DNA of 64,000 nucleotides from an uncultured bacterium (GCA_963789635.1 CAWBLF010000003.1:2372-66371); one strand, 5' to 3'; positions 686-41,883 are shown, numbered from the stretch's first letter. Made by a program: numbers and translations. Notes: generated by a model from the sequence alone, not told the origin.

Positions 686-1063
686 ATTTATCTTCCTGAT
701 ACCACATTTCCAAAAACCAATTTCAACGGCGCGGCGTTTCGGTGAACCTCTCTTCTGACAACACTACATCGTGTCTGGAAAATGAAAAACGGTGAAATGG
801 CCAGCACCTGGAAAAAATTATAGGGAGATTCCTTTCGTTCAGCATGCGAAGTGATCTTGTGCAATGAGTCATCAAAGCACCGGCAATGACTATCGCGCTT
901 TTTATAACGGGAACCTGTTATGAAATCACGTCCCGCATCAATACATCCACTTTTGAGGTGTACACGATGGATTTTCTTGATAAGTCGTTACACCGATCAG
1001 GAACGAACCACAACGGGATTGATTTTGGAAAAAATCGTATCCAGTTTTAGGTTTCTAAAATAA
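686..1063 (+). pseudogene. 3' fragment of the hypothetical secreted protein gene (mirror of 10055-~10430), with the 5' half deleted
   Basis: Aligns with the reverse complement of 10055-10430 with indels. It encodes remnants of ...IYLPDTTFPKTNFNGA... and ends with the same ...SSFRFLK stop context at 1061-1063. Confidence 0.7.
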
Positions 1064-1136
1064 ATTTAATCTAGCACAAATGCGCTACATCACACCGTTT
1101 TTTATTGACGCTTAGTGATATAATTTTAGTCTATTA

Positions 1137-1545
1137 ATGAACAAAACTATGATATACCTGGCTATTTTCGTTGGTGCGCTTTTGGCTACCGCTTTCGGTT
1201 TCATATGGCATATGCCATTCGCCTTCGTAAACAATGGATGGAACTTTCTGAATAACATGCTGGGTGCAGCCAACGCTTGCTTATGTGGCAAAGATATACG
1301 GCGCAAAACTCCTGACAGCTCTGGTATCGGTATTTGTCATATACCGTTTTTTTGATCTACTGCAGATAAATTCTGTAATCGGGGCGTGCGAATTTATATT
1401 GTGGGTGTGGCTCGGGTTTATTGTCCCAATTGAGCTCGGTCAAACATTATTGACTGGCAGGTGGAAACTTTTTATCATCAACTCCTTTCAATATTTTGGG
1501 TCATATCTTTTGGCCGCTGTCCTTCTCATACTCATGACTTGTTAA
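1137..1545 (+). pseudogene. DUF1761-like membrane protein pseudogene (mirror of 9561-9980)
   Basis: Split into ORFs 1137-1355 and 1264-1545. Both match parts of the 139-aa protein MNKTMIYLAIFVGALLATAFGFIWHMPFAF... Confidence 0.75.
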
Positions 1546-2600
1546 AAAAAGGACACACCCACATGTTGGCATTTTGATCTGAAAACCGAGGAGGCGTGGG
1601 CCTCCATGAAAACTGGCTTGCTTGAATGCCAAAACCTCCATAGATGTGGAGCAATATATTTTGGAACGCGACGAAATCGGTCAAGAATTCTTGGAATTGC
1701 TTATATCCAAGCGCAAACAAGGCATTCACGTCCGAATATTGTGCGACATGGCCGGAAGTTATGGATTGTTTGCCTCCAATTTGCCAAGTACCTTGAAGGA
1801 TATCGGCATTGAAATCCGTTTTTTTATGCTTATCAGCTGTGGAGACTTTTAAATTTCTTTTCATGGTTTTTGCGTGATCACCGCAAACTGATGGTGGTAG
1901 ACGGGGCCACCGGCTTCATAGGCGGAGTGGGATTTCGCAAGGACATGCAGTTTTGGCGCGACACCCACTTGCAGATAACTGGCCCGATAGTCGGTGAAAT
2001 GCGTTTCGCCTTTGAGGAAATGTGGGAGAGGCGCTGAAAATTTCCGTCGAATAATAGAACTCGAAAATTCATAAAAGGTTTCAATTTTGTCACAAACTTC
2101 TCCTATATTCGAAACGTTTTATGTACCGAATTTTTATAGAAGCAATTCAAAACGCCCAAAAATATATTTGCATTACCACGCCATATTTCATACCTGACCG
2201 AAGGTTGCGCCGAGTCCTGAGGCCGAGACGCGGTGTGGAAGTAAAAATTCTCATTTGACAGAAGTTATTACAAAAGTGTGGATTTGGCCTCACGGACTTG
2301 CTTCTAAAAACTACTTTCATTCGGTGTCAAAATATTTTTTGTATACCAACGAAATGATACACGCCAAAACAGCCGGTCATACAATGACGAATGGCTACCG
2401 CTGGGCAGTTCAAACTTCTTCGAGTTTTTCTCATAATTACGAGGAAAATATTGTCAGTACCAAAAAAGATTTTGCTATGGAAGCTGAAAAAAAATATTTT
2501 GATGTAGATTCGGACTATGCAAAAAAAGGGCTCATATTGGCCGAATGAGCGTGTCCTAATTTTCGTGAAACTATAATGTTACGCTTACGGTATCCCTCAA
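1541..2600 (+). pseudogene. cls: Cardiolipin synthase (PLD family) pseudogene (mirror of 8477-9568)
   Basis: Fragments 1622-1852 and 2255-2548 and antisense pieces match the Cls protein. Multiple frameshifts and stops are present. Confidence 0.75.
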
Positions 2601-3758
2601 CTGAAAGTGAAAGTGTAGGCCTGAAGTCCGGGGGTTTCGATAATAAACTGTAGTGTATGCGTTCCGGTTGAGCTATCTTGAATTATGTTATAAAGTGCAT
2701 CGTCTTTTACTAACATGCCTTCCGTCTGTGGTTGTCACAACATCGCTCCCTTTCTCGACACCAAGACGTCACGAAGAATTTCCACAGTTGTATCGGTATT
2801 CGCTCCGGCAACAAAAAATACATTGGTGGCGGTGTATTGATATTCTATTTGTGCATTTCGCGATTTATTTTGCGCATACTGGTCAAAAAATTCCAATCAC
2901 CAGAAAGATAGAACGTATCCGGATTAATTGTTTGTGGAATTACCAGTTCCGGCTTGTAGACCAGCCAGACTCTGCATGCCATTGCCAAAAAATTCGTTTC
3001 TAGCTGAACCAAAATACGTCTGGGCTCATCGGTCCACTTGGAGTTTGGCTCACGTCTGTGGTCAAAGGTTGTGCTATCCCTGTCGTAGGAAGACCAAGTA
3101 CCACTGCACGTTCTACAAGAGCCTTTTTGAATCTCTTGTTCAGTTTCTTGGTAATTACCTTCCCACTCTGGTCGTGGACCACATAGCCATCTATATCTAT
3201 AAGATATTCGTGTGGCCAATACTGGTTGTCGTACGCTTTCCATGTGCCGTAATTACTGTCAAGAATGATGGGGTACGATGCGCAAACGAGTCACTGCCTT
3301 CGTAACGTTGTTAATATCTTTTTCAATTAATTGGCCGCACTCCGATAATCTCAAGTCCATATTTTGCATATTTGCTATACGAGCTGTTTAGATACGAAAT
3401 AGCGCGCGTACAATCGACAGCTGTAAGTCCAGAAGTCTATGAGAATTACTTTCTTGCCAACCAAACTTGAAATGGTAACAGGCTTTCCGCCTGTATTTAT
3501 AAATCCCGTTGGATTGGTTGTGAGCTAAAACGCTCGTGCCTTTTGCTGCGGAGTAAAACACGTGTAACCGGTCGTTGTGGTTGTAGTTGATGAAACCGCC
3601 ACATCTGTCGAGCTCGTAGCTGATCGCGCTGGCACCACGGAGACAGCGTCTACCCCACCGGAGCCAATGCGTGACTGGCGAGAACTTAGAAATATTATGG
3701 CGCTTACAATGATGATAACGACGAGCGCAAGAGTCAGTCTGCGTGTAGAGGTATTCAT
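2597..3758 (-). pseudogene. Thioredoxin-like (TlpA/DipZ-type) protein pseudogene (mirror of 7284-8480)
   Basis: ORFs 3525-3758(-), 2845-3243(-) and 3000-3182(-) each match separate segments of the 398-aa protein in different frames. Confidence 0.75.
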
Positions 3759-3759
3759 G

Positions 3760-4474
3760 TTATCTAAGCAAAATATTATTTATAAAATCAAAATTAGCGA
3801 TGAGTGGTAAACTTTGTGTAAACACCAAAACTCCAAGAGCAAGAAGGACGATACCAAACACAATATTTACAATTTTTAATGCTTTCGGTGCGTGAATTAA
3901 TGAAGCGACTGGCTCTGTGCGGTAGAATAACTGACAATCAAGAACGGTACGCCAAGCCCCAGTAGATAGACCGAGAAGAAGGACAAAGGCTACTGGGTTC
4001 GGTGTAGTGCAATTCCGAGTATTACACCGAGGGCCGGGCGAGCACACGGCGTCCATCCCGCCGACAAATGCTAGACCAAAAAGAAACGACGTTATAACGG
4101 GAAGAAAATTTTCTTTTAACTCCAAACTTGTATTCCTTTTCTAGGAATGGAATCTTGATAAGCCCGACAAGAAAAAGACCAAAAACAATTATGAGTAGCC
4201 TGCTAATGCGCGAAAGCCATGTCTGCACGTCGTATGCCACGTGAGTAAGTACGGTATTTAGAAGAACACCTAGAATGGCAAAAACAAAAGAGAAACCAAA
4301 AACAAAAAAAAACGCTGTTGAGAAAAATGACTTTACGCTTGTTTCATCGTTTGGTGCGGCGCCTGCAAGATATGCCAAAAAACCGGGCAATAATAGGCAA
4401 CACACAAGGAAGAAGAGGAATGAGACAAGACCTGCGACAAACGCAGCAATGAGTGAAATAGAATGTCCGAACAT
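3760..4474 (-). pseudogene. ccdA: ccdA pseudogene (mirror of 6572-7282)
   Basis: ORFs 4022-4489(-) and 3760-4125(-) match CcdA in two frames. The SPCVLP cysteine motif is replaced by out-of-frame sequence. Confidence 0.8.
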
Positions 4475-4581
4475 AAAAAAACAGATCAAACTTTTAAGTT
4501 ACTAATTATATCAGAGGGCCATTGAAAATTGCTGTATTAACGATATAATTGGGAGGTCAATTAATCAAACACACAAATATC

Positions 4582-7283: not shown

Positions 7284-8480
7284 ATGAATACCTCTACACG
7301 CAGACTGACTCTTGCGCTCGTCGTTATCATCATTGTAAGCGCCATAATATTTCTAAGTTCTCGCCAGTCACGCATTGGCTCCGGTGGGGTAGACGCTGTC
7401 TCCGTGGTGCCAGCGCGATCAGCTACGAGCTCGACAGATGTGGCGGTTTCATCGACTACAACCACAACGACCGGTTACACGTTTCTTACTCCCGCACAAA
7501 AGGCACAACAGTTTAGCTTGGCAAAAGAGATTACCGATCCAACGGGATTTATAAATACAGGCGGAAAGCCTGTTACCATTTCAAGTTTGGTTGGCAAGAA
7601 AGTAATTCTCATAGACTTCTGGACTTACAGCTGTATCAATTGTCAGCGCACTATTCCGTATCTAAACAGCTGGTATAGCAAATATGCAAAATATGGACTT
7701 GAGATTATCGGAGTGCACAGCCCGGAGTTTGATTTTGAAAAAGATATTAACAACGTTACGAAGGCAGTGACTCGTTTCGGCATTGAGTACCCCGTCGTTC
7801 TTGACAGTAATTACGGCACATGGAAAGCGTACGACAACCAGTATTGGCCACACGAATATCTTATAGATATAGATGGCTATGTGGTCCACGACCAGATTGG
7901 GGAAGGTAATTACCAAGAAACTGAACAAGAGATTCAAAAAGCTCTTGTAGAACGTGCAGTGGTACTTGGTCTTCCTACGACAGGGATAGCACAACCTTTG
8001 ACCACAGACGTGAGCCAAACTCCAAGTGGACCGATGAGCCCAGAAACATATTTTGGTTCAGCTAGAAACGAATTTTTTGGCAATGGCATGCAGAGTCTGG
8101 CTGGTCTACAAGCCGGACTGGTGATTCCACAAACAATTAATCCGGATACGTTCTATCTTTCTGGTGATTGGAATTTCTTTGACCAGTATGCGCAAAATAA
8201 ATCGGCAAATGCACAAATAGAATATCAATACACCGCCACCAATGTATTTTTTGTTGCCGGCGCGAATACCGATACAACTGTGGAAATTCTTCGTGACGGG
8301 AAACCTCTTGGTGTCGAGAAAGGGAGCGATGTTGTGACAACCACAGACGGAAAGACAGTGGTTCACATAAAAGACAATCGGCTTTATAACATAATTCAAG
8401 ATAGCTCAACCGGAACGCATACACTACAGTTTATTATCGAAACCCCCGGACTTCAGGCCTACACTTTCACTTTTGGTTAA
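7284..8480 (+). CDS. Membrane-anchored thioredoxin-like protein (TlpA/ResA fold with DipZ-like C-terminal domain)
   Basis: N-terminal TM helix and a CxxC motif in FWTYSCINCQRT. Located immediately downstream of ccdA (stop/start 1 nt apart). Confidence 0.75.
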   Translation: MNTSTRRLTLALVVIIIVSAIIFLSSRQSRIGSGGVDAVSVVPARSATSSTDVAVSSTTTTTTGYTFLTPAQKAQQFSLAKEITDPTGFINTGGKPVTISSLVGKKVILIDFWTYSCINCQRTIPYLNSWYSKYAKYGLEIIGVHSPEFDFEKDINNVTKAVTRFGIEYPVVLDSNYGTWKAYDNQYWPHEYLIDIDGYVVHDQIGEGNYQETEQEIQKALVERAVVLGLPTTGIAQPLTTDVSQTPSGPMSPETYFGSARNEFFGNGMQSLAGLQAGLVIPQTINPDTFYLSGDWNFFDQYAQNKSANAQIEYQYTATNVFFVAGANTDTTVEILRDGKPLGVEKGSDVVTTTDGKTVVHIKDNRLYNIIQDSSTGTHTLQFIIETPGLQAYTFTFG

Positions 8481-9980: not shown

Positions 9981-10054
9981 TAATAGACTAAAATTATATC
10001 ACTAAGCGTCAATAAAAAACGGTGTGATGTAGCGCATTTGTGTCAGATTTAAAT

Positions 10055-11204: not shown

Positions 11205-11497
11205 TGAATGATTGTTTAAGATTAAATTACAAAAAGACGACAAAATCGACTACTTCTTCGAGCTTCTTTGTACTCTACAATACTATCATATCTCATATAA
11301 TTTGTCAACCCAAAAATCGTGGAGAGTAAATCGTTGAGCGTAAAACGTGTGTAATGGCTAGAAATATGGAATTTTGAGGCTATGGTATAATACCTGCATG
11401 CCCAAAGAAAAATCCGGATGGAAAAGAGCCAAAGCTCTATCAAACGTCCAAAAGACCACTGACTTTTTGATTAAGTCTAAAAAACGAGACAAGAAAA

Positions 11498-11521
11498 GAC
11501 CGGCCTAAGCCGGTTTTTTTG
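11498..11521. terminator. Strong GC hairpin flanked by A-run and T-run (bidirectional terminator-like), orphan between divergent csp and smpB
   Basis: gaccggc-ctaa-gccggt followed by ttttttt, with an A-run upstream. A mirror copy lies at ~566-590. Confidence 0.5.
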
Positions 11522-11541
11522 AATTCTGCTATCATGTTTGT

Positions 11542-11985
11542 ATGAGTCTTATCCAAAACAAAAAGGCGCATTTTAATTATGAAATTACAGAAAAGCTCGA
11601 AGCCGGTATCGAGCTTATCGGCCTTGAAGTAAAAAGCTTGAGGAAAGGGCAGGGCAACCTTGAGGGTTCGCATGTCACCATCCGAGGCAAGGAAGCGTAC
11701 CTGATAGGTATGCAAATTCCGCCATTTCAAAGCGCCAATACACCGGAAAGTTACAATCCGACTCGCAACCGCCGACTATTACTGACCAAGAAAGAGCTCA
11801 AAGAATTGGAAGGGGTGGAGCATCAAAAAGGATTGACAATCGTGCCTATTTCGGTGTATAATAAAGGTAGAAAATTGAAAGTAGAGCTCGGTATCGCCCG
11901 CGGTAAGAAAAGGTTTGATAAACGTCAGACTATAAAGAAACGCGAGACAGACCGAGAGACAAGACGCACTTTGAAATATGAATAA
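11542..11985 (+). CDS. smpB: SsrA-binding protein SmpB
   Basis: 147 aa with NKKAHFNYEI..LEAGIELIGLEVKS..., typical of SmpB. The tmRNA gene lies 390 nt downstream. Confidence 0.95.
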   Translation: MSLIQNKKAHFNYEITEKLEAGIELIGLEVKSLRKGQGNLEGSHVTIRGKEAYLIGMQIPPFQSANTPESYNPTRNRRLLLTKKELKELEGVEHQKGLTIVPISVYNKGRKLKVELGIARGKKRFDKRQTIKKRETDRETRRTLKYE

Positions 11986-12371: not shown

Positions 12372-12772
12372 GGGAGTGATCGGCCTAGACAGTAGGATTC
12401 ATTTGGAATATGCAGGAGAGAGCTGTGGTGACTCTAAAATCCGCCACAAAGACTAACTGCAAACAGCACAGTCGCACGAGCAAACGTTTCTCCATATTTT
12501 GGAGCTAACGATTTTGCTTTCGCTTACGCTTCGGCCTAAACGACGTCAACTCTTACAAAGTCTGTAAGCAAGATGTTGGTGGAATAATGACGGACTCTAG
12601 AACACAACCGCTTCGGTGTGTTCTGAACTGTAGAAGCTCGGCATAATGAGGTTTTGTTTACTTCCTACTCATTACGCTCAAATCTGTCTTCGACAGGTGA
12701 AATAAACTAACTCTTGTAGAAATATTTCAAATACCTTATTGCACCGCGGTTCGATTCCGCGCACTTCCACCA
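12372..12772 (+). ncRNA. ssrA: tmRNA (ssrA), one-piece form
   Basis: The 5' GGGAGUG pairs perfectly with the 3' CACUUCC, including G3:U70. T-arm is CGCGG-UUCGAUU-CCGCG, followed by ACCA. A candidate tag ORF starts at GCA 12459 and ends ...FAYASA with TAA at 12537-12539. Adjacent to smpB. Confidence 0.8.
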
Positions 12773-12919
12773 GCAAAATGATGCCGCTCGAAAGAGCGGT
12801 TTTCATTTTGCTGGTGGAAGCTATTCTAGGAATCGAACGGCCGGAGCGCGACGGCGCGAGACGGGGTCGCGGAAATTTTTAGCAAAAAATTATCCGTGAC
12901 TCATTCCGCGCACTTCCAC
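12773..12919 (+). repeat. tRNA/tmRNA-end-associated element, copy A (appended to the tmRNA 3' end)
   Basis: 17-nt direct repeat attccgcgcacttccac at 12754-12770 and 12903-12919. 18-bp hairpin 12764-12781/12803-12820. Inverted T-loop copy at 12829-12838. GC-rich core at 12839-12880 shared with copies B, C and E. Confidence 0.55.
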
Positions 12920-13085
12920 AAAAATAAGGAACATAGTGACTATATTTTTGTAGGATACCGCTGTACTCAGTGGTGCCACTTCCAGTTGTGTTTTCTAATA
13001 CTTTTTACAGTGTTGATAGTTCGGTGTATAATCCATTTGGAAAGACGTTGAAAGTTCTTCATAACAACAATCAGGGAGAATCTAT

Positions 13086-16114: not shown

Positions 16115-16277
16115 AATGTTCTATAATATTACTAATAAATAATTGCCTGCTTCTATTGTATCAAAAAATAAACGTATTGTGGCAGTTCTCCACAGGTAAA
16201 ATCATTTGCTTGTCGATAGGTATAAATTAGCTCTAAAAAGGGCTATTATGCTATAGTTTTAGGGGTTTCCTCACATT

Positions 16278-16526
16278 CCGCCCTTAGCTCAGTTGGTTAG
16301 AGCACAGAGCTTATAATTACTAGCGAGAGGAGAAATTGTAAGCTATGCTTACATATTTCAACCGAGCGACGTAATTATATGAAAGTGTTTTTGGTGCGAG
16401 TATAGCTCAGTTGGTAGAGCGCCGAGCTTATACCTCGGTGGTCCTAGGTTCGAATCCTAGTACTCGCACCAAAAACGTTTCCATATACCTCTGCGGTCCT
16501 TGGTTCGAATCCAAGAGGGCGGACCA
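16278..16526 (+). tRNA. tRNA-Ile(UAU) gene split after position 37 by a 172-nt insert (16316-16487)
   Basis: The 5' half CCGCCCT-TA-GCTC..GAGC-A-CAGAG-CTTATA and the 3' half C-CTCTG-CGGTC-CTTGG-TTCGAAT-CCAAG-AGGGCGG-A-CCA form a perfect cloverleaf only when joined. Confidence 0.55.
16396..16471 (+). tRNA. tRNA-Ile(UAU), complete with encoded CCA, nested inside the split tRNA
   Basis: GCGAGTA/TACTCGC acceptor, canonical D and T arms, anticodon loop CTTATAC. Flanks gtttttggt/accaaaaac extend the acceptor helix to 16 bp. Confidence 0.8.
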
Positions 16527-16548
16527 ATATATTCTGACGAAGGTCTTC

Positions 16549-16580: not shown

Positions 16581-19187
16581 TTATTCAAAATGGATTTTGT
16601 TTTCGGTTTTTCTTAGGTGATCTGTGAGGAGAGGGAAGTTTGAGAGAGACGGGTTTTCGGCAATAATTCTTGTCGCTTCTGTCCGTGCCGCTTCCACCAT
16701 CTTAATGTTGCGTATGGCTTCCATTGCCAAATCCGAGATACCCCATTGTTTGCCACCGTACAATTCGCCGGCGCCACGTTGTTGCAAGTCAAACTCGGCC
16801 AGTTCAAAACCATTGGCGGCTTTTTTCAGCGCGTTTAGCCGTTCCGAGGTTTTTTCATTCGAAGATTCTGTGAACACAAAACAATACGGTTGGTATGTGC
16901 TTCTTTGGACACGCCCGCGCAGTTGGTGAAGTTGGGCTAGACCGAACCTTTCGCCTCCTTCAATGATTATGACGGTGGCGTTTGGCACATTGACTCCCAC
17001 TTCAACCACCGATGTTGCTACCAGAATATCAATCTTATGGGTATTGAAATCGTTCATCACTTTTTCTTTTTCTGCCGGAGTCATTTTTCCGTGAAGAATG
17101 GCAATTTCAAATTCCGGAAAAACTTCTTTTTTGAGCCGTTTGGTCTCCTCCGTCACAGACTTGGCAAGGATAGAATTTTCTTTTGTTGGATCCGGCTCAT
17201 TGATGCGCGGGCAAATGACATATGCTTGACGGCCAGATTGTATTTCGTGTCGCACTTTTTCGTAGATATCTTTTCTTTGTTTTGGCAGGACAATTTCTGT
17301 AATGATTTTCTTTCTTCCCGGTGGCATTTCATCGAGCAAGCTTAGATCCAGATCACCATAAAGTGTCAAAGCGAGAGTCCTCGGTATTGGCGTGGCGGTC
17401 ATAGACAATAGATGCGGAACGGACGCGGAACTATGCTGAACATACGCGGAACCACGTGCTTTATCGTAGATAATCCTTTGAATAGTAAGTTCTGACGGGC
17501 CGAAATTTGCTAGTAGTGCTAGACGATAATCTGAACCTTTTAAATAATTCCAAAGCTGCTTTTTTTCCGTAGTTCCAACAAAAGAAAGTGCTTTCAGTTC
17601 AACAATTATTTTTTCATCAATTACAAAATCTGGAATATATACACCAACTTTCTTTTTGTTATAAAAAATTGGAATTTGTTTCTCGCGATTATATGAAATA
17701 TTTCGTTTTGTAAATTCCTCCGCTAGTGCTTTTTGGTAGACAACTTCCTTATGACCAGAACCGAGTTGTTTTTTTACTTCAAATATTGCTTGTCTAACCA
17801 TATACGATAAATCTTTGTACAAAAGTTCTGGACTGGTTTTTTCTTCTGCGACGTTCGGCGTTTGTTCCGCGCTAGTTCCGCGAGCCAGCGCCGCGCGCTG
17901 GCTTACTCCAAATCGGTGTTGTTCATCAATAATGACATAGGCCAGATGTTTGAACTTTACAGATTTTTGGATAAGGGTATGCGTTCCGATAAGAATGGGT
18001 ATCTCTCCACTGGCTACCCATTTGAGAAGCTGGGCGCGTGAAATAGTAGTGTAGCCGTTCGGATTTACTTTTGATGGAAATTTTTTACAACCACTACCCG
18101 TGATTAGACCTATAGAGATTCCCGTTCCCACAAAGAATTTTATAAACGATTCAAAATGTTGTTGGGCTAATATTTCCGTAGGCACCATATAGGCGGTCTG
18201 AAGATTGCCAAAGTCTTGACCATTTGGCCGTGTGGTGGTAACCACAAATGTGCTTGTGGCGGCTACCGCTGTCTTGCCACTTCCCACATCACCTTCGAGC
18301 AAACGGGACATCGGGTGACCTTTTTTGAAATCATAAAGAACGTGTTCAAGAGTTTTTTCTTGAGCTTTTGTGAGAGGAAATGGCAATCGATTGACAAAGT
18401 CTGACAACGTACTTTGATTTGGTTCGATAATAAACCCCTTTTCGTGTTGCCAACGAGCACGGTTTTGTTGTTTTTCCAGTTGAATAAAAAATATTTCCTC
18501 AAATGCAAACCTTTTTCTAGCCGAAAGCGCGTCGTCGGTCTTGTGCGGTGTGTGAATCCAGATGAGTGAAGTTTTTAGATTGGGAAGCTTGTAGGTTTTT
18601 AGAATATTTTCCGGTATTGGGTCATTGATGGTGTCCAATAGACCAGATAAGAAAATTCTTTGTACGGTGTGATACATCCAGTTGGAAGTGATGCCACGAC
18701 TCTCCGGGTAAACAGGATAAAGCGTGTGGTCAGGTACCCCCTCATTCCAAAGTGAATCACCAACTGCCAGTGGAATCTTGGTGACGGTTTCTATTTTTGG
18801 GTTACTCATATAAAGCTCTCCTTTTCTTTCACTTACTTTGCCTTCGGCCCGTACGAGCGAGCCCTCTCCAATCATTTTTGCCAAGTAGGCCTGATGAAAC
18901 CAAATAATTTTCATCCTACCTGTTTCGTCTTCAATCACCCCTTCAGCCATTGGGATTTTTTTGCGAAAAGCCTTGCTGGTTTTGAGTCCGGAAATTTTGC
19001 CAAAGATCACAGCACTACTTCCTTTTGACAATGAACCGATATTCATTTTTGATGCCGTGTCGCCGTATCGGATGGGGAAGTGATAGAGCATATCCGCCAC
19101 GGTTTCAATATGTAAGTTTTTTAGAGCTTTGGCTTGAGCTGGCAAAACTCTAGTTACATCAGAAATTTTTGTTTCAAGATTTATCAT
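16581..19187 (-). CDS. recG: ATP-dependent DNA helicase RecG with an in-frame ~142-aa insertion
   Basis: GDVGSGKT, DEQHRFGV, SMTATPIPRT and QLHQLRGRVQR motifs with an N-terminal wedge/OB region. At 868 aa it is longer than typical because of the insert between motifs II and III. Confidence 0.9.
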   Translation of the reverse strand: MINLETKISDVTRVLPAQAKALKNLHIETVADMLYHFPIRYGDTASKMNIGSLSKGSSAVIFGKISGLKTSKAFRKKIPMAEGVIEDETGRMKIIWFHQAYLAKMIGEGSLVRAEGKVSERKGELYMSNPKIETVTKIPLAVGDSLWNEGVPDHTLYPVYPESRGITSNWMYHTVQRIFLSGLLDTINDPIPENILKTYKLPNLKTSLIWIHTPHKTDDALSARKRFAFEEIFFIQLEKQQNRARWQHEKGFIIEPNQSTLSDFVNRLPFPLTKAQEKTLEHVLYDFKKGHPMSRLLEGDVGSGKTAVAATSTFVVTTTRPNGQDFGNLQTAYMVPTEILAQQHFESFIKFFVGTGISIGLITGSGCKKFPSKVNPNGYTTISRAQLLKWVASGEIPILIGTHTLIQKSVKFKHLAYVIIDEQHRFGVSQRAALARGTSAEQTPNVAEEKTSPELLYKDLSYMVRQAIFEVKKQLGSGHKEVVYQKALAEEFTKRNISYNREKQIPIFYNKKKVGVYIPDFVIDEKIIVELKALSFVGTTEKKQLWNYLKGSDYRLALLANFGPSELTIQRIIYDKARGSAYVQHSSASVPHLLSMTATPIPRTLALTLYGDLDLSLLDEMPPGRKKIITEIVLPKQRKDIYEKVRHEIQSGRQAYVICPRINEPDPTKENSILAKSVTEETKRLKKEVFPEFEIAILHGKMTPAEKEKVMNDFNTHKIDILVATSVVEVGVNVPNATVIIIEGGERFGLAQLHQLRGRVQRSTYQPYCFVFTESSNEKTSERLNALKKAANGFELAEFDLQQRGAGELYGGKQWGISDLAMEAIRNIKMVEAARTEATRIIAENPSLSNFPLLTDHLRKTENKIHFE
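17451..17876 (-). other. GxxExxY / PD-(D/E)xK-like (PDDEXK_3-type) module inserted in-frame in recG (residues ~438-579)
   Basis: LGSGHKEVVYQKAL (GxxExxY-like), DFVIDEKIIVELK (D..E.K) and QLWNYLKGSDYRLALLANFG. Bounded by inverted repeats cgcggaac (17424, 17445) and gttccgcg (17864, 17875). Confidence 0.7.
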
Positions 19188-19195
19188 TCATTTAC

Positions 19196-19287
19196 TGGCG
19201 GAGACGGACGGATTCGAACCGTCGAGGGGTTTTAAAGCCCCTGCCTCTTTAGCAAAGAGGTACGTTAGACCACTCTGACACGTCTCC
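19196..19287 (-). tRNA. tRNA-Ser(GCU), type II, CCA encoded
   Basis: The reverse complement reads GGAGACG..., anticodon loop TTGCTAA, long variable arm GCAGGGGCTTTAAAACCCCTCG, T-arm GACGG-TTCGAAT-CCGTC, G73, CCA. Confidence 0.9.
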
Positions 19288-19446
19288 AATATGTATTCTG
19301 TTACTCTACTGCATTGTTTTTAACAGAAGGTACGTTAGGTCAGGAGTATTTTCCTATTGAAAAATCTCCCGACCCGGACTCGTGCCGTCGCACTCCGTCT
19401 TTGATTTGCTACGTATCCTCGCAAATCAACACTCTGACACGTCTCC
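19288..19446 (-). repeat. tRNA-end-associated element, copy E (upstream of tRNA-Ser), with a partial 5' tRNA duplicate
   Basis: The 17-nt repeat cactctgacacgtctcc is at 19271-19287 and 19430-19446. Hairpin 19401-19409/19421-19429. The core at 19361-19400 aligns with copy A in the same orientation as the host gene. A 13-nt D-arm remnant lies at 19329-19341. Confidence 0.5.
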
Positions 19447-19531
19447 AAGTGCTTGTCACACTATCATAATTATTTTACCTTTTCTATGGTAACTTTTTAT
19501 TATCAATAAAATGGGTTAAAGTTGTCTGGTT

Positions 19532-19618
19532 GGAGGGTTGGGTGAGTGGTTTAAACCAACAGTTTACTAAACTGTCGTCCTTTAATTGGGACCGTGAGTT
19601 CGAATCTCACACCCTCCG
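19532..19618 (+). tRNA. Type II tRNA with Ser-like identity elements, anticodon reading ACU
   Basis: GGAGGGT/ACCCTCC acceptor, G73, long variable arm, T-arm GTGAG-TTCGAAT-CTCAC. The anticodon stem ACAGT/ACTGT encloses the loop TTACTAA. Confidence 0.7.
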
Positions 19619-19706
19619 CAATTACCAAACACCTCAACAAAAGTTGAGGTGTTTGGTAATTTATGAGGGGGCTCGGTAAATTAAAATAGGATGTTAGAAT
19701 ACAAAG

Positions 19707-35629: not shown

Positions 35630-38307
<2,678 letters not shown>

Positions 38308-40889: not shown

Positions 40890-40983
40890 GGTTGCCGTCT
40901 ACGTACCTGATCATAATGAAGTGTAGTATATATAGCGGGTTGCCGTACGTACCTGATCATAATGAAGTGTAGTATATATAGCG
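40890..40983 (+). repeat. Tandem duplication (48 + 46 nt) abutting and overlapping the 5' end of the tRNA-like gene
   Basis: ggttgccgt(ct)acgtacctgatcataatgaagtgtagtatatatagcg occurs twice. Each unit junction recreates agcgggttg, the first 9 nt of the tRNA at 40980. Confidence 0.8.
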
Positions 40984-41050
40984 GGTTGGAGGAGTAGTAC
41001 CTCGACAGGCTCATAACCTGTAGGCATCAGTGCAATTCTGATACCCGCAA
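40980..41050 (+). tRNA. tRNA(CAU) with initiator-like marks but non-canonical D and T loops
   Basis: Acceptor AGCGGGT/ACCCGCA with an A1:A72 mismatch. D stem GAGG/CCTC (A11:T24). Anticodon arm ACAGG-CTCATAA-CCTGT. T arm ATCAG-TGCAATT-CTGAT lacks TTC, and the D loop AGTAGTA lacks GG. Confidence 0.45.
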
Positions 41051-41116
41051 CAAGCACTCGTGGGTGACAGACACGAAACGAAAAATATCTAGTCACCCAT
41101 GGGATGTGAGACAATT

Positions 41117-41293
41117 GTCGAGGTAGCTGTTTTGGTAGTTAAACTGTAACGTTTTGTTTTTGTAAGTTTTCGTATGTCGAGGTAGCTGTTTTGGTAGTTA
41201 AACTGTAACGTTTTGTTTTCGTTAGTTTTCGTATGTCGAGGTAGCTGTTTTGGTAGTTAAACTGTAACGTTTTGTTTTCGTAAGTTTTCGTAT
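41117..41293 (+). repeat. 3 x 59-nt tandem repeat immediately upstream of tRNA-Met, each unit starting with the tRNA 5' end
   Basis: Units at 41117-41175, 41176-41234 and 41235-41293 differ by 2-3 substitutions. Each begins gtcgaggtagct (the first 12 nt of the tRNA) and retains ggtag at the D-loop position. Confidence 0.9.
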
Positions 41294-41366
41294 GTCGAGG
41301 TAGCTCAGTCGGTAGAGCACAGCACTCATAAAGCTGCGGTCGTGAGTTCGATTCTCACCCTCGACA
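41294..41366 (+). tRNA. tRNA-Met(CAU), elongator-type (or Ile2 if lysidinylated)
   Basis: GTCGAGG/CCTCGAC acceptor, GCTC-AGTCGGTA-GAGC D arm, anticodon loop CTCATAA, T-arm GTGAG-TTCGATT-CTCAC, A73. No CCA encoded. Confidence 0.85.
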
Positions 41367-41536
41367 CAATATTAAAAAACTTAATCATTAAATTTTTTAA
41401 TATTGTGACGAGCAAAGAAGCGTAAGCTTCTGTGGGAGAATCGAAAGCCGGAGCATATCGCCTTGGCGATGCGAGGCGGGGTCGCGACCGAGCACAGCAG
41501 TGCGAGAGTTGTGACCGATTCTCACCCTCGACACCA
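41367..41536 (+). repeat. tRNA-end-associated element, copy B (after tRNA-Met)
   Basis: 17-nt direct repeat gattctcaccctcgaca at 41350-41366 and 41517-41533, with the second copy followed by cca. 13-bp hairpin 41367-41379/41393-41405. Inverted T-loop copy at 41436-41445. Core at 41446-41489. Confidence 0.55.
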
Positions 41537-41555
41537 GAATTAAAAATTCGAAATT

Positions 41556-41629
41556 GCGGTCGTAGCTCAACTGGTTAGAGCACTCGCCTGTCACGCGAGA
41601 GGTTGCCGGTTCAAGTCCGGTCGGCCGCG
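41556..41629 (+). tRNA. tRNA-Asp(GUC)
   Basis: GCGGTCG/CGGCCGC acceptor, anticodon loop CTGTCAC, T-arm GCCGG-TTCAAGT-CCGGT, G73. Confidence 0.9.
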
Positions 41630-41809
41630 CAAAAGAAAAGGTCACAGAAGTGGCTTTTTCTGCGGGTGCCGGACTTGAACCGGGGAAGGGGGTCGGGGAA
41701 AAGGGACTTTCCCCGTGGAGGAAAACAGCGAAGCGTTAGAAACCGCGGGTTTCTAAAACGCAGTCCTGAGTTTACGATGGCGAGTAGTGAAATTCCGGTC
41801 GGCCGCGCA
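41630..41809 (+). repeat. tRNA-end-associated element, copy C (after tRNA-Asp)
   Basis: 16-nt direct repeat tccggtcggccgcgca at 41616-41631 and 41794-41809. Perfect inverted T-arm copy ccggacttgaaccgg at 41669-41683. GGGGGTCGGGGAAAA core-like motif at 41688-41702. Confidence 0.45.
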
Positions 41810-41828
41810 ATATCCGGAATTATAAAAT

Positions 41829-41855
41829 AAAGACCGCTCCTCTGGGCGGTCTTTA
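41829..41855 (-). terminator. Intrinsic terminator of the minus-strand ORF 41884-42333
   Basis: agaccgc-tcctctgg-gcggtct, with a T-run on the minus strand (reverse complement ...gcggtctttatttta). Confidence 0.6.
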
Positions 41856-41883
41856 GGGGTAGTTTTGGTCGTACACATCACTT

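Follow-up and report, generated by a model that had tools for sequence, protein, structure and literature searches.

In a 64,000-nt stretch of DNA from an uncultured bacterium (GCA_963789635.1 CAWBLF010000003.1:2372-66371; hereafter the window), the transfer-messenger RNA (tmRNA) gene is followed by a small, gene-less element, copy A, which belongs to a family that is phylum-wide in the Patescibacteria, or Candidate Phyla Radiation (CPR). The family is defined by a strand-specific three-way-junction core, usually set in a frame made of direct and inverted copies of the neighbouring tRNA or tmRNA 3' end, the second direct copy beginning exactly at T-loop position C56; the copies are patchily distributed, and some are tandem or nested. 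We tentatively favour a reading in which they are non-autonomous insertion cassettes that enter tRNA and tmRNA genes at T-loop positions 55/56, and we infer movement, a single-stranded intermediate and an enzyme acting in trans.

The core and its tRNA-derived frame

The tmRNA gene that hosts copy A occupies 12372-12772 on the plus strand (ARAGORN; Rfam RF00023, 87.3 bits), with T54 of its T-loop at 12750 and C56 at 12752, and all parts of the copy lie on the same strand. The first, L, is the final 17 nt of the tmRNA before its CA (12754-12770), and the repeat search recovers the same 17 nt at 12903-12919, just where an initial annotation of this DNA had reported them; this second copy, L', also provides the 3' strand of P1, the helix that closes the core. 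Between L and R stands t, a terminator-like hairpin (GCCGCTC-GAAA-GAGCGGT) with a U-tract at 12783-12810, identified by terminator scan and folding, of which 12783-12800 scored as an intrinsic terminator. R, at 12803-12841, is an inverted copy of the tmRNA 3' end (inverted-repeat search; fold of -56 kcal/mol). Its 12803-12820 pairs with 12764-12781 at 18 of 18 positions, which is the perfect 18-bp hairpin described earlier, and the inverted T-loop described with it is found at 12829-12841, where it pairs with the T-loop at 12746-12758 (13 nt, 92%). What had gone unnoticed is how far this inversion reaches: nearly all of the tRNA 3' end recurs in it as a Watson-Crick copy, which prolongs the terminator palindrome. 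Core A follows at 12840-12902 in the order GCCGGAG, P2 (CGCGACGGCGCG), GAGACGGGG and P3 (GUCGCGG...CCGUGAC), and is covered by a covariance-model match at 12829-12909 (81.5 bits, E = 1.9e-21).

The structure of the core was derived with RNAalifold and explicit pair counts from an alignment of 86 copies, from which the covariance model was also built. It is a three-way junction of ~65-80 nt with the consensus (A/G)GCCGGAG, P2, CGAGGCGGGGUCGCG, and P3 ending A-NNN-GUGAC(C). P1 varies in sequence; a GCC/GGC stem with a GGA/GA internal loop runs into the covarying hairpin P2, a GGG linker comes next, and P3 is a long hairpin that keeps a basal G.U pair in 85 of the 86 copies, a second pair that is G.U or G-C, and, 8 nt short of the core's 3' end, a conserved bulged A. 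A canonical K-turn at GCC-GGA/GA-GGC was rejected, since the bulge has the wrong size; the site is probably no more than a tandem-GA-like internal loop. Across the alignment 87.3% of all cells are paired, against 70.2% in shuffles, and the covariation score of 0.459, against 0.158 after shuffling, fell to 0.06-0.13 when partners were slid by 1-3 columns. None of 500 shuffles reached it, and the pairing that the initial annotation saw maintained through sequence change in the small hairpin holds on 86 copies. The wobble pairs restrict the core structure to the tRNA-sense strand, whether that is RNA or single-stranded DNA. About 30 of its nucleotides are nearly invariant throughout the phylum, in genomes of 30-65% GC. 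In the window itself the pattern CGGAG-N(6-24)-GAGNNNGGGTCG, derived from the three cores that can be aligned, occurs three times (0 in 100 shuffles), and scanning the whole window without filters the covariance model scored copies A, E and B at 81.5, 74.6 and 70.4 bits, the next best match reaching 13 bits.

The frame is equally regular. Among 140 pattern matches, 72 sit 23-260 nt 3' of a same-strand tRNA or tmRNA of nearly any specificity, 62 lie within 130 nt, and the inserts are of uniform size, ~130-190 bp. The usual order is L, t, R, core, L', where L is the host tRNA's last ~20 nt and t a hairpin usually resembling a bidirectional intrinsic terminator. R follows with no gap after the right arm of t and repeats the tRNA, inverted and Watson-Crick complementary, from ~74 back to ~54. 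Of the tRNA-linked copies, 56 were folded from T54 up to the core, and most gave a single long hairpin (in our numbering of loci, L171, L177, L075 and L145 are examples); of the final 23 nt of the tRNA a median of 11 pair with R, at least 8 being paired in 36 of the 56, and a U-run is present in 41. The complementarity of R extends through the discriminator and C74, and R sets an A opposite U70 of the tmRNA, so that R is complementary sequence rather than a duplicated 5' acceptor strand. We rejected R as the vestigial 5' acceptor strand of a second tRNA, since its register is shifted over the discriminator and CCA and it has A where the tmRNA has G3, and we rejected a minus-strand pseudo-tRNA, since no complementary T-stem flanks the inverted T-loop. 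An extra hairpin in R, P0, often lies exactly opposite the acceptor/T-stem boundary (window copy B, L011, L017, L074, L082, L126, L155, L162, L170); kissing between its loop (CUGC) and that of P3 (CAGCAG) was inconsistent between copies and was set aside.

L' begins at C56, immediately after GUGAC, and stops at the tRNA 3' end. Through the discriminator it agrees with the tRNA at 18 of 18 positions in 18 of the 56 copies and at 16 or more of 18 in 21, several further arms being shifted by 1 nt only, and the 12 nt beyond it match at only ~5/12 (four tandem cases excluded). Since identity ends with the tRNA, the duplication is tRNA segment 56-73/74 and nothing else. R and L' together make P1, and R can pair equally with L; L' is perfect in the window and decayed in L012, L020 and L027. 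The T-loop-derived part of some L' arms has a further small hairpin, its loop reading UAMU (AGCGTACTCGCG, TGCGTAATCGCG, CATGTACTCATG; L066 ~10010-10040, L111 ~625-650, L096, L176 (directly after GUGACCGA)). The initial annotation had put forward a miniature insertion element with long target duplications. The first half of that proposal remains the closest reading, but L' as a staggered-cut target duplication is probably wrong: its fixed start at C56, its stop at the tRNA end and its tracking of the tRNA fit better with an element-borne 3' end or a maintained pairing partner.

Several variants depart from the usual order. 'Type c' copies have a P1 of just 5-6 bp, built from the end of the tRNA and the first part of the terminator (L141, for example). 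'Type b' copies, window copy E among them, bring their own 5' hairpin before GCAAGG-CCGGAG and lie upstream of tRNA-Ser or at other intergenic spots; the genes downstream are, by N-terminal sequence, transketolase-like, DinB-like and UppS-like, and a riboswitch was rejected for these copies because such genes are unrelated to one another. In L019, L129, L136 and window copy E the core sits directly in the T-loop or D-loop of a partial tRNA beside an intact one. Tandem or nested copies occur in L011, L012, L059 (66/66 repeated), L068, L086, L134 and L140. The R...L' frame also holds unrelated cores, in window copy D and in a 'type 2' element at the tRNA-Arg of L011. The type 2 core (...TTGAG, AT-rich hairpin, CCAA...) is seen at 7549-7714 (minus strand) and ~11400-11560 in L011 and as an upstream copy in L152, with an inverted T-loop on its 5' side and a T-loop-to-3'-end repeat on its 3' side.

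Copies in the window and across the Patescibacteria

What had been presented as a four-copy family is, in the window, three copies of one core, and the family extends to the whole phylum. Copy B is hosted on the plus strand by tRNA-Met (CAU) at 41294-41367 (ARAGORN, Rfam), the last part of which, 41349-41367, is its L (repeat search). Its spacer, 41368-41446 (inverted-repeat search, fold), comprises an AT-rich hairpin at 41360-41412, the anti-acceptor GTGACGAG at ~41406-41413, the inserted P0 at 41416-41431 and the anti-T-loop at 41436-41445. Core B, with a long P2 and a P3 of the tRNA-Met type, lies at 41447-41515 (covariance-model match 41436-41524, 70.4 bits), and its L', 41516-41534, repeats C56 to the tRNA-Met 3' end at 18 of 18 positions and is followed by CCA, which the tRNA-Met gene copy itself does not have. 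The layout claimed earlier at tRNA-Met is thus present in full, with the 19-nt repeat (41349-41367/41516-41534), the inverted T-loop and the core.

At tRNA-Ser(GCU) (19196-19287) the earlier claim stood for the 19-nt repeat and the core but not for the layout. Core E, a type b core on the minus strand at 19330-19410 (74.6 bits; inverted-repeat search), is located upstream of the gene; a 5' hairpin of its own (19401-19429) precedes AAAGACGGAG...CUGACC, and an inverted T-loop is absent. It is the 5' end of tRNA-Ser that is duplicated, the 19 nt of 19271-19289 recurring by repeat search at 19430-19448 on the minus strand, and an 11-nt D-arm fragment at 19328-19338 repeats 19258-19268.

At tRNA-Asp, by contrast, the repeat and the inverted T arm were confirmed and the core was not. 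Copy D (41631-41810, plus strand; repeat search, geometry only) lies 3' of this gene around an unrelated interior, with a direct repeat at 41613-41632/41791-41810 and the whole T arm inverted at 41669-41683 (15/15), but the unfiltered scan of the window gave it no match to the core model, and it is therefore not a family member; the window copies are A, B and E. Its one resemblance to the core, at the base of P3, is a GGGGGUCGGGG...CCCCGUGG stretch, and since the interior also has no relative among the fetched loci, a diverged member of the family was ruled out.

Beyond the window, the core pattern was found among relatives fetched by SmpB in L011, L012 (two in tandem after the tmRNA), L017, L020, L021 and L027. 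The covariance-model scan proposed in the initial annotation located 16 further copies in SmpB loci, all of them CPR (L003-L027), and no match in 29 non-CPR SmpB loci. Public metagenomes scanned with a 20-base pattern gave at least 120 loci; among the matches listed, ~100 were low- to mid-GC contigs with the full motif, and ~20 GC-rich ones were chance. The tRNA-Met copies of the window, L070 and L170 have a common P2/P3 subtype, and copy lineages are target-specific, per tRNA-Met subtype. At the tmRNA, the core was present in the window, L011, L012, L013, L020 and L027 only among 30 SmpB-tmRNA loci, the clade of L012, L013 and L020 having its tmRNA-linked copy in common; the closest relative, L001 (77% SmpB identity), and most others have a plain terminator after the tmRNA.

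Five of the SmpB-tmRNA loci have in place of the core a GIY-YIG cassette (L002 ~4090-4511, L010 10931-11342, L017 10862-11330, L024 ~11330-11722, L028 8427-8832). It is fused directly to the tmRNA 3' end, ...CTCCAC being followed at once by TCGACTCG, and consists of a conserved, structured leader (CGCTCGTGGTAAACCAC ... GAGTCGAGTGTCCCGAG ... GTCGAGGGAC) and a ~89-aa GIY-YIG protein (Pfam, 6e-18). In L017 the cassette seems to have taken the place of a core copy's 5' portion. The L017 open reading frame (ORF) seemingly within P3 belongs to this separate cassette, and a GIY-YIG homing endonuclease was accordingly dropped as the mobiliser of the family; the 'long P3 with ORFs' candidates were artefacts of the partner-finding rule.

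No catalogued RNA family or mobile element was found that matches these sequences. Against Rfam 15 (4227 models) at gathering thresholds the window yielded the tmRNA and tRNAs only, and at E values up to 10 the regions 12700-13000 and 41280-41880 yielded only chance microRNA and small-RNA matches, with neither Intron_gpI nor Intron_gpII among them. No self-cleaving ribozyme (hammerhead, twister, pistol, hatchet, HDV-like, hairpin) matched copy A, and a Hairpin ribozyme match inside copy D (E = 6) is due to chance. The earlier statement that no known element has this layout is in keeping with the absence of an Rfam match, and full-text literature searches turned up no description of the motif.

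Candidate readings: insertion cassette, resident RNA or intron

Consider how an insertion cassette of this kind would work. The unit would be L-t-R-core, seated between tRNA positions 55 and 56, with L as a replacement for the tRNA segment from C56 to the 3' end and t as its own terminator. The host gene would stay whole, as positions 1-55 plus L, ending at t, and the original 3' end would be pushed to the far side as L'. The unit would move, or would once have moved, as a folded single strand in which the L:R duplex mimics the double-stranded tRNA-gene target, and in which the P2 and P3 hairpins serve as a handle for an enzyme supplied in trans; candidates for this enzyme, which would be encoded elsewhere, are a HUH/Y1 transposase that recognises hairpins and a tyrosine recombinase. 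The terminator would keep R out of most tRNA transcripts, where R would otherwise unfold the tRNA. Insertion of this kind would leave no seam and do the host no harm, and would follow the principle of tRNA-integrating islands within ~150 nt. The presence of R is best explained by an active folded single strand with L:R reproducing the target, and the patchy tmRNA-linked presence, the tandem and nested copies, the simple-insertion forms and the unrelated cores in the same frame favour insertion and turnover. There are hairpins at both ends and strand-specific G.U(T) pairs, and a site by the T-loop GGTT(C) motif would be compatible with insertion of the IS200/IS605 type.

A considerable body of observation nonetheless weighs against this reading. 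No integrase, transposase, reverse transcriptase or homing endonuclease was found by Pfam in window ORFs of at least 140 aa (nearly all of them), in agreement with the initial annotation, which had noted no integrase or transposase nearby, and no recombinase, nuclease or Y1/HUH transposase was seen in the 64-kb window. The ORFs that overlap inserts are two unconserved ones of 75-82 aa, at copies B and D, and there is no credible gene. Around metagenomic copies, the top 25 Pfam families of 140 flanking ORFs include no recombinase, transposase, reverse transcriptase or nuclease; the neighbours are housekeeping genes of the usual sort, among which recombinases are not enriched. Viral contigs gave one weak 30-bit match in 100 of 120 lax-pattern loci, and with copies there essentially nil no vehicle for horizontal spread is seen. 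Of the empty orthologous tmRNA sites that the initial annotation had proposed to look for, coreless loci exist in relatives, but no filled/empty pair was seen in near-identical genomes, and copy A is also present, at equal spacing, in the sole other assembly of the organism (L299). The three window cores are markedly unlike one another despite perfect flanking repeats, and L' follows the tRNA sequence of the genome it is in (as at tRNA-Met in the window, L070 and L170). Since L' tracks the tRNA while cores diverge, its identity would be kept by selection on the pairings of R or by gene conversion, and it is not a clock; a maintained L' fits functional-helix selection or gene conversion at least as well as recent insertion. 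The tRNA-Met subtype present in three genomes with own-tRNA L' arms and the tmRNA copy common to L012, L013 and L020 likewise weigh against simple recent insertion, and ~30 nearly invariant nucleotides are more typical of a ribozyme, an aptamer or a protein-binding RNA than of a transposon interior.

These points lead to the main rival, which we consider rather unlikely, namely that the copies are functional RNA modules resident at tRNA loci. On this view a transcript of R-core-L' would adopt the fold of a tRNA-like mimic, with R:L' as an acceptor-like helix, P0 as an option at the acceptor/T-stem boundary and the T-stem extended into the core, and the mimic would bind a protein or ligand in tRNA 3'-end processing or quality control, as a decoy, or as a riboswitch-like sensor switching R between L and L'. 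The build is that of an aptamer or ribozyme: the closing helix varies, P2 and P3 covary and differ in length, and ~30 junction nucleotides are near-invariant. The G.U pair works on the tRNA-sense strand only, and P0 is placed at the very point from which the D and anticodon arms of a real tRNA emerge; R, L and L' form the classic 1:2 versus 2:3 alternative-pairing design, L' is identical to the tRNA and follows it between genomes, and the common copy of L012, L013 and L020 looks like vertical inheritance. The setting argues the other way. A terminator usually stands ahead of R, and no promoter is predicted for the core; given the terminator between tRNA and R, we argue that R and the core are not mainly read in the tRNA transcript. 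The acceptor-like helix pairs the discriminator and C74, which leaves no free NCCA end. Presence is patchy at orthologous tRNA and tmRNA genes and limited to some tRNAs per genome, the genes downstream of type b copies are unrelated, and tandem and nested copies, together with unrelated cores in the frame, look selfish.

An intron-like RNA is, in our view, improbable. On such a model L-t-R-core would be excised from read-through RNA, and inserted anew, at two identical N/C56 junctions, with R as an internal guide pairing the 3' exon (in the manner of P1/P10, or of exon- and intron-binding sites) and the core as a putative small ribozyme or a platform for a ligase or nuclease. Both junctions have the same 3' sequence (C56...), with R pairing across, and simple-insertion forms without L exist (L019, L129, L136). 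The element ends in AC and has its bulged A 8 nt before that end; domain 6 of group II introns has a bulged A at such a position and an AC-type ending. The T-loop of tmRNA is, moreover, a known site of group I introns, with four subsites (PMC11915505). Against this, no intron or self-cleaving ribozyme family matched at E values up to 10, a core of ~80 nt is far below the size of any self-splicing intron, and the upstream tRNA is already complete, so that splicing would be unneeded. We give similarly little credence to a core that would itself be a small nucleic acid of a new kind, catalytic or guide-bearing, with R finding a specific tRNA 3' half and insertion occurring at T-loop 55/56 with a spare 3' end; a TnpB-type guide RNA, with the core as scaffold and L' as guide, was not adopted, since it would target the intact upstream tRNA copy. 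Finally, decayed attL/attR relics of integrase islands or prophages, or by-products of palindrome-driven rearrangement, are highly improbable and, after the covariance-model and covariation results, largely refuted: T-loop-to-3'-end direct repeats are the classic signature of tRNA integration, tmRNA is a known genomic-island hotspot (PMC11915505) and other tRNA rearrangements occur in the same genome, but the att-site relics suggested earlier would not have a common core of ~65-80 nt, nearly invariant across genomes of 30-65% GC and with compensatory changes across hundreds of loci and many lineages, nor a uniform size of ~130-190 bp without integrase remnants, and rearrangement alone cannot provide a foreign core.

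Known systems, genome setting and significance

The insertion cassette that we favour resembles several known systems, each in part. Like the islands and prophages that a tyrosine integrase of the T-loop class places in tRNA genes, the family brings its own copy of the tRNA 3' end, which keeps the gene intact, shows a T-loop-to-3'-end direct repeat that is borne out by the flanking repeats, and is found at the favoured tmRNA; unlike them it measures ~150 bp, has neither integrase nor cargo, and adds an inverted target copy and a three-way-junction core. A double-stranded circle of ~150 bp is an unlikely substrate for an integrase. Folded single-strand sites are used by integron attC, by CTX-phi attP(+) through XerCD, and at IS200/IS605 ends. 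The attC and CTX-phi attP(+) sites share with the present element a one-strand inverted repeat mimicking a double-stranded target, imperfect hairpins with bulges or unpaired centres, and strand-specific function; here there is no link to an integron integrase or Xer, the target is a tRNA gene and not attI or dif, and the junction falls at the end of the mimic duplex and not inside it. The gene-less, hairpin-rich palindrome-associated transposable elements (PATEs) derived from IS200/IS605, and the repetitive extragenic palindromes of the REP/REPIN-RAYT type, use a trans enzyme and insert seamlessly next to a short motif. They are alike in strand-specific G.T pairs and bulges, in intergenic positions near terminators and in multiple or tandem copies; their sequences are conserved at the species or genus level and they are not known to have target arms, whereas the present family is phylum-wide, with target-specific L and R arms of ~20 nt. 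A miniature inverted-repeat transposable element would be expected to have constant terminal inverted repeats and a fixed short target duplication, and neither is found here: the flanking arms vary by copy, matching the host tRNA, and the repeat runs from C56 to the tRNA end, 17-21 nt or more. With riboswitch aptamers and orphan three-way-junction RNAs the core has in common a variable P1, length-variable hairpins, a conserved junction and an alternative partner for a P1 strand; unlike them it lies 3' of a tRNA and terminator, has no coherent regulated gene, and makes P1 from neighbouring tRNA sequence. Among the nearest literature are group I introns in the anticodon loop, at positions 35/36, of Patescibacteria tRNAs (PMC13011429) and at four T-loop subsites of tmRNA, itself a genomic-island hotspot (PMC11915505). 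Such group I introns (PMC11915505, PMC13011429) also invade the loop of a tRNA-like gene and carry a guide-like exon-pairing segment; here there is no group I core, the size is 3-5 times smaller, and an intact gene copy stands upstream. Since each known family considered departs from the element in at least one defining feature, less clearly so for the IS200/IS605 type, and Rfam 15 holds no match, we rate the element as a kind not yet described.

The window is chromosomal DNA of Patescibacteria (CPR) of the Paceibacteria/Zambryskibacteria type. It carries SmpB, tmRNA, FtsH, RecG, LigA, GatCA, FtsZ, FtsA, GyrA and a type IV pilus cluster, with 9 tRNA/tmRNA genes (ARAGORN, Rfam); its top SmpB relative (GTDB, one genome per species) is 77% identical, and the close relatives are all CPR metagenome-assembled genomes. 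Other tRNA genes here are also unusual. At 16276-16527 an older tRNA-Ile(UAU) is split in its anticodon loop by ~170 nt that hold a complete, different tRNA-Ile(UAU) with CCA (16396-16471), the 5' half ending ...CAGAGCTTATAA near 16316 and the 3' half being ATACCTCTGCGGTCCTTGGTTCGAATCCAAGAGGGCGGAC at ~16487-16527; the same displaced 3' fragment also lies 3' of tRNA-Ile in L017, L019 and L024. Tandem repeats at 41116-41305 (59 nt x 3.2) and 40890-40988 (46 nt x 2.1) include in each unit the 5' end of the downstream tRNA-Met, and are partial tRNA duplications without a core. At a coreless tRNA-Ser (19532-19619; ACU according to ARAGORN) a terminator palindrome, 19612-19669, reaches the acceptor 3' strand with 27-nt arms that are 89% complementary, and long tRNA-end palindromes therefore occur without the core too. 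Elsewhere, ~3 kb at 745-4000 have no ORF above 132 aa and no Rfam match; RecG (16581-19187, minus strand) has a PD-(D/E)XK nuclease domain (PDDEXK_3, 5.7e-31) inserted at residues 459-571, between the helicase lobes; and ligA (37500-37690) is in two frames, the first ORF ending at 37520 and the zinc finger lying in another frame from ~37513, which could be a frameshift, a sequencing error or recoding.

Regardless of which reading proves correct, CPR genomes are tiny, with little room for junk, and the element is still on a sizeable share of the sampled tRNA loci, with a core conserved like that of a ribozyme or riboswitch. Its duplicated 3' ends can mislead tRNA and tmRNA gene annotation, as well as island callers that use tRNA-fragment repeats. 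If the family is mobile, it would represent a new, harmless way of colonising essential RNA genes, by a 150-nt unit that brings a 3' end, a terminator and a target copy, and its arms, which appear retargetable to any tRNA, would be of interest for programmable insertion. Should the core be catalytic or guide-bearing, it would be a self-complementing, retargetable 'T-loop intron' or an RNA-guided mini-element of the CPR; equally novel would be a dedicated mimic RNA of tRNA 3' ends that senses, repairs or decoys damage to the tRNA 3' half. If it is a resident RNA, it would constitute a new class of tRNA-linked RNA with a regulatory or quality-control role, in organisms about whose RNA processing little is known.

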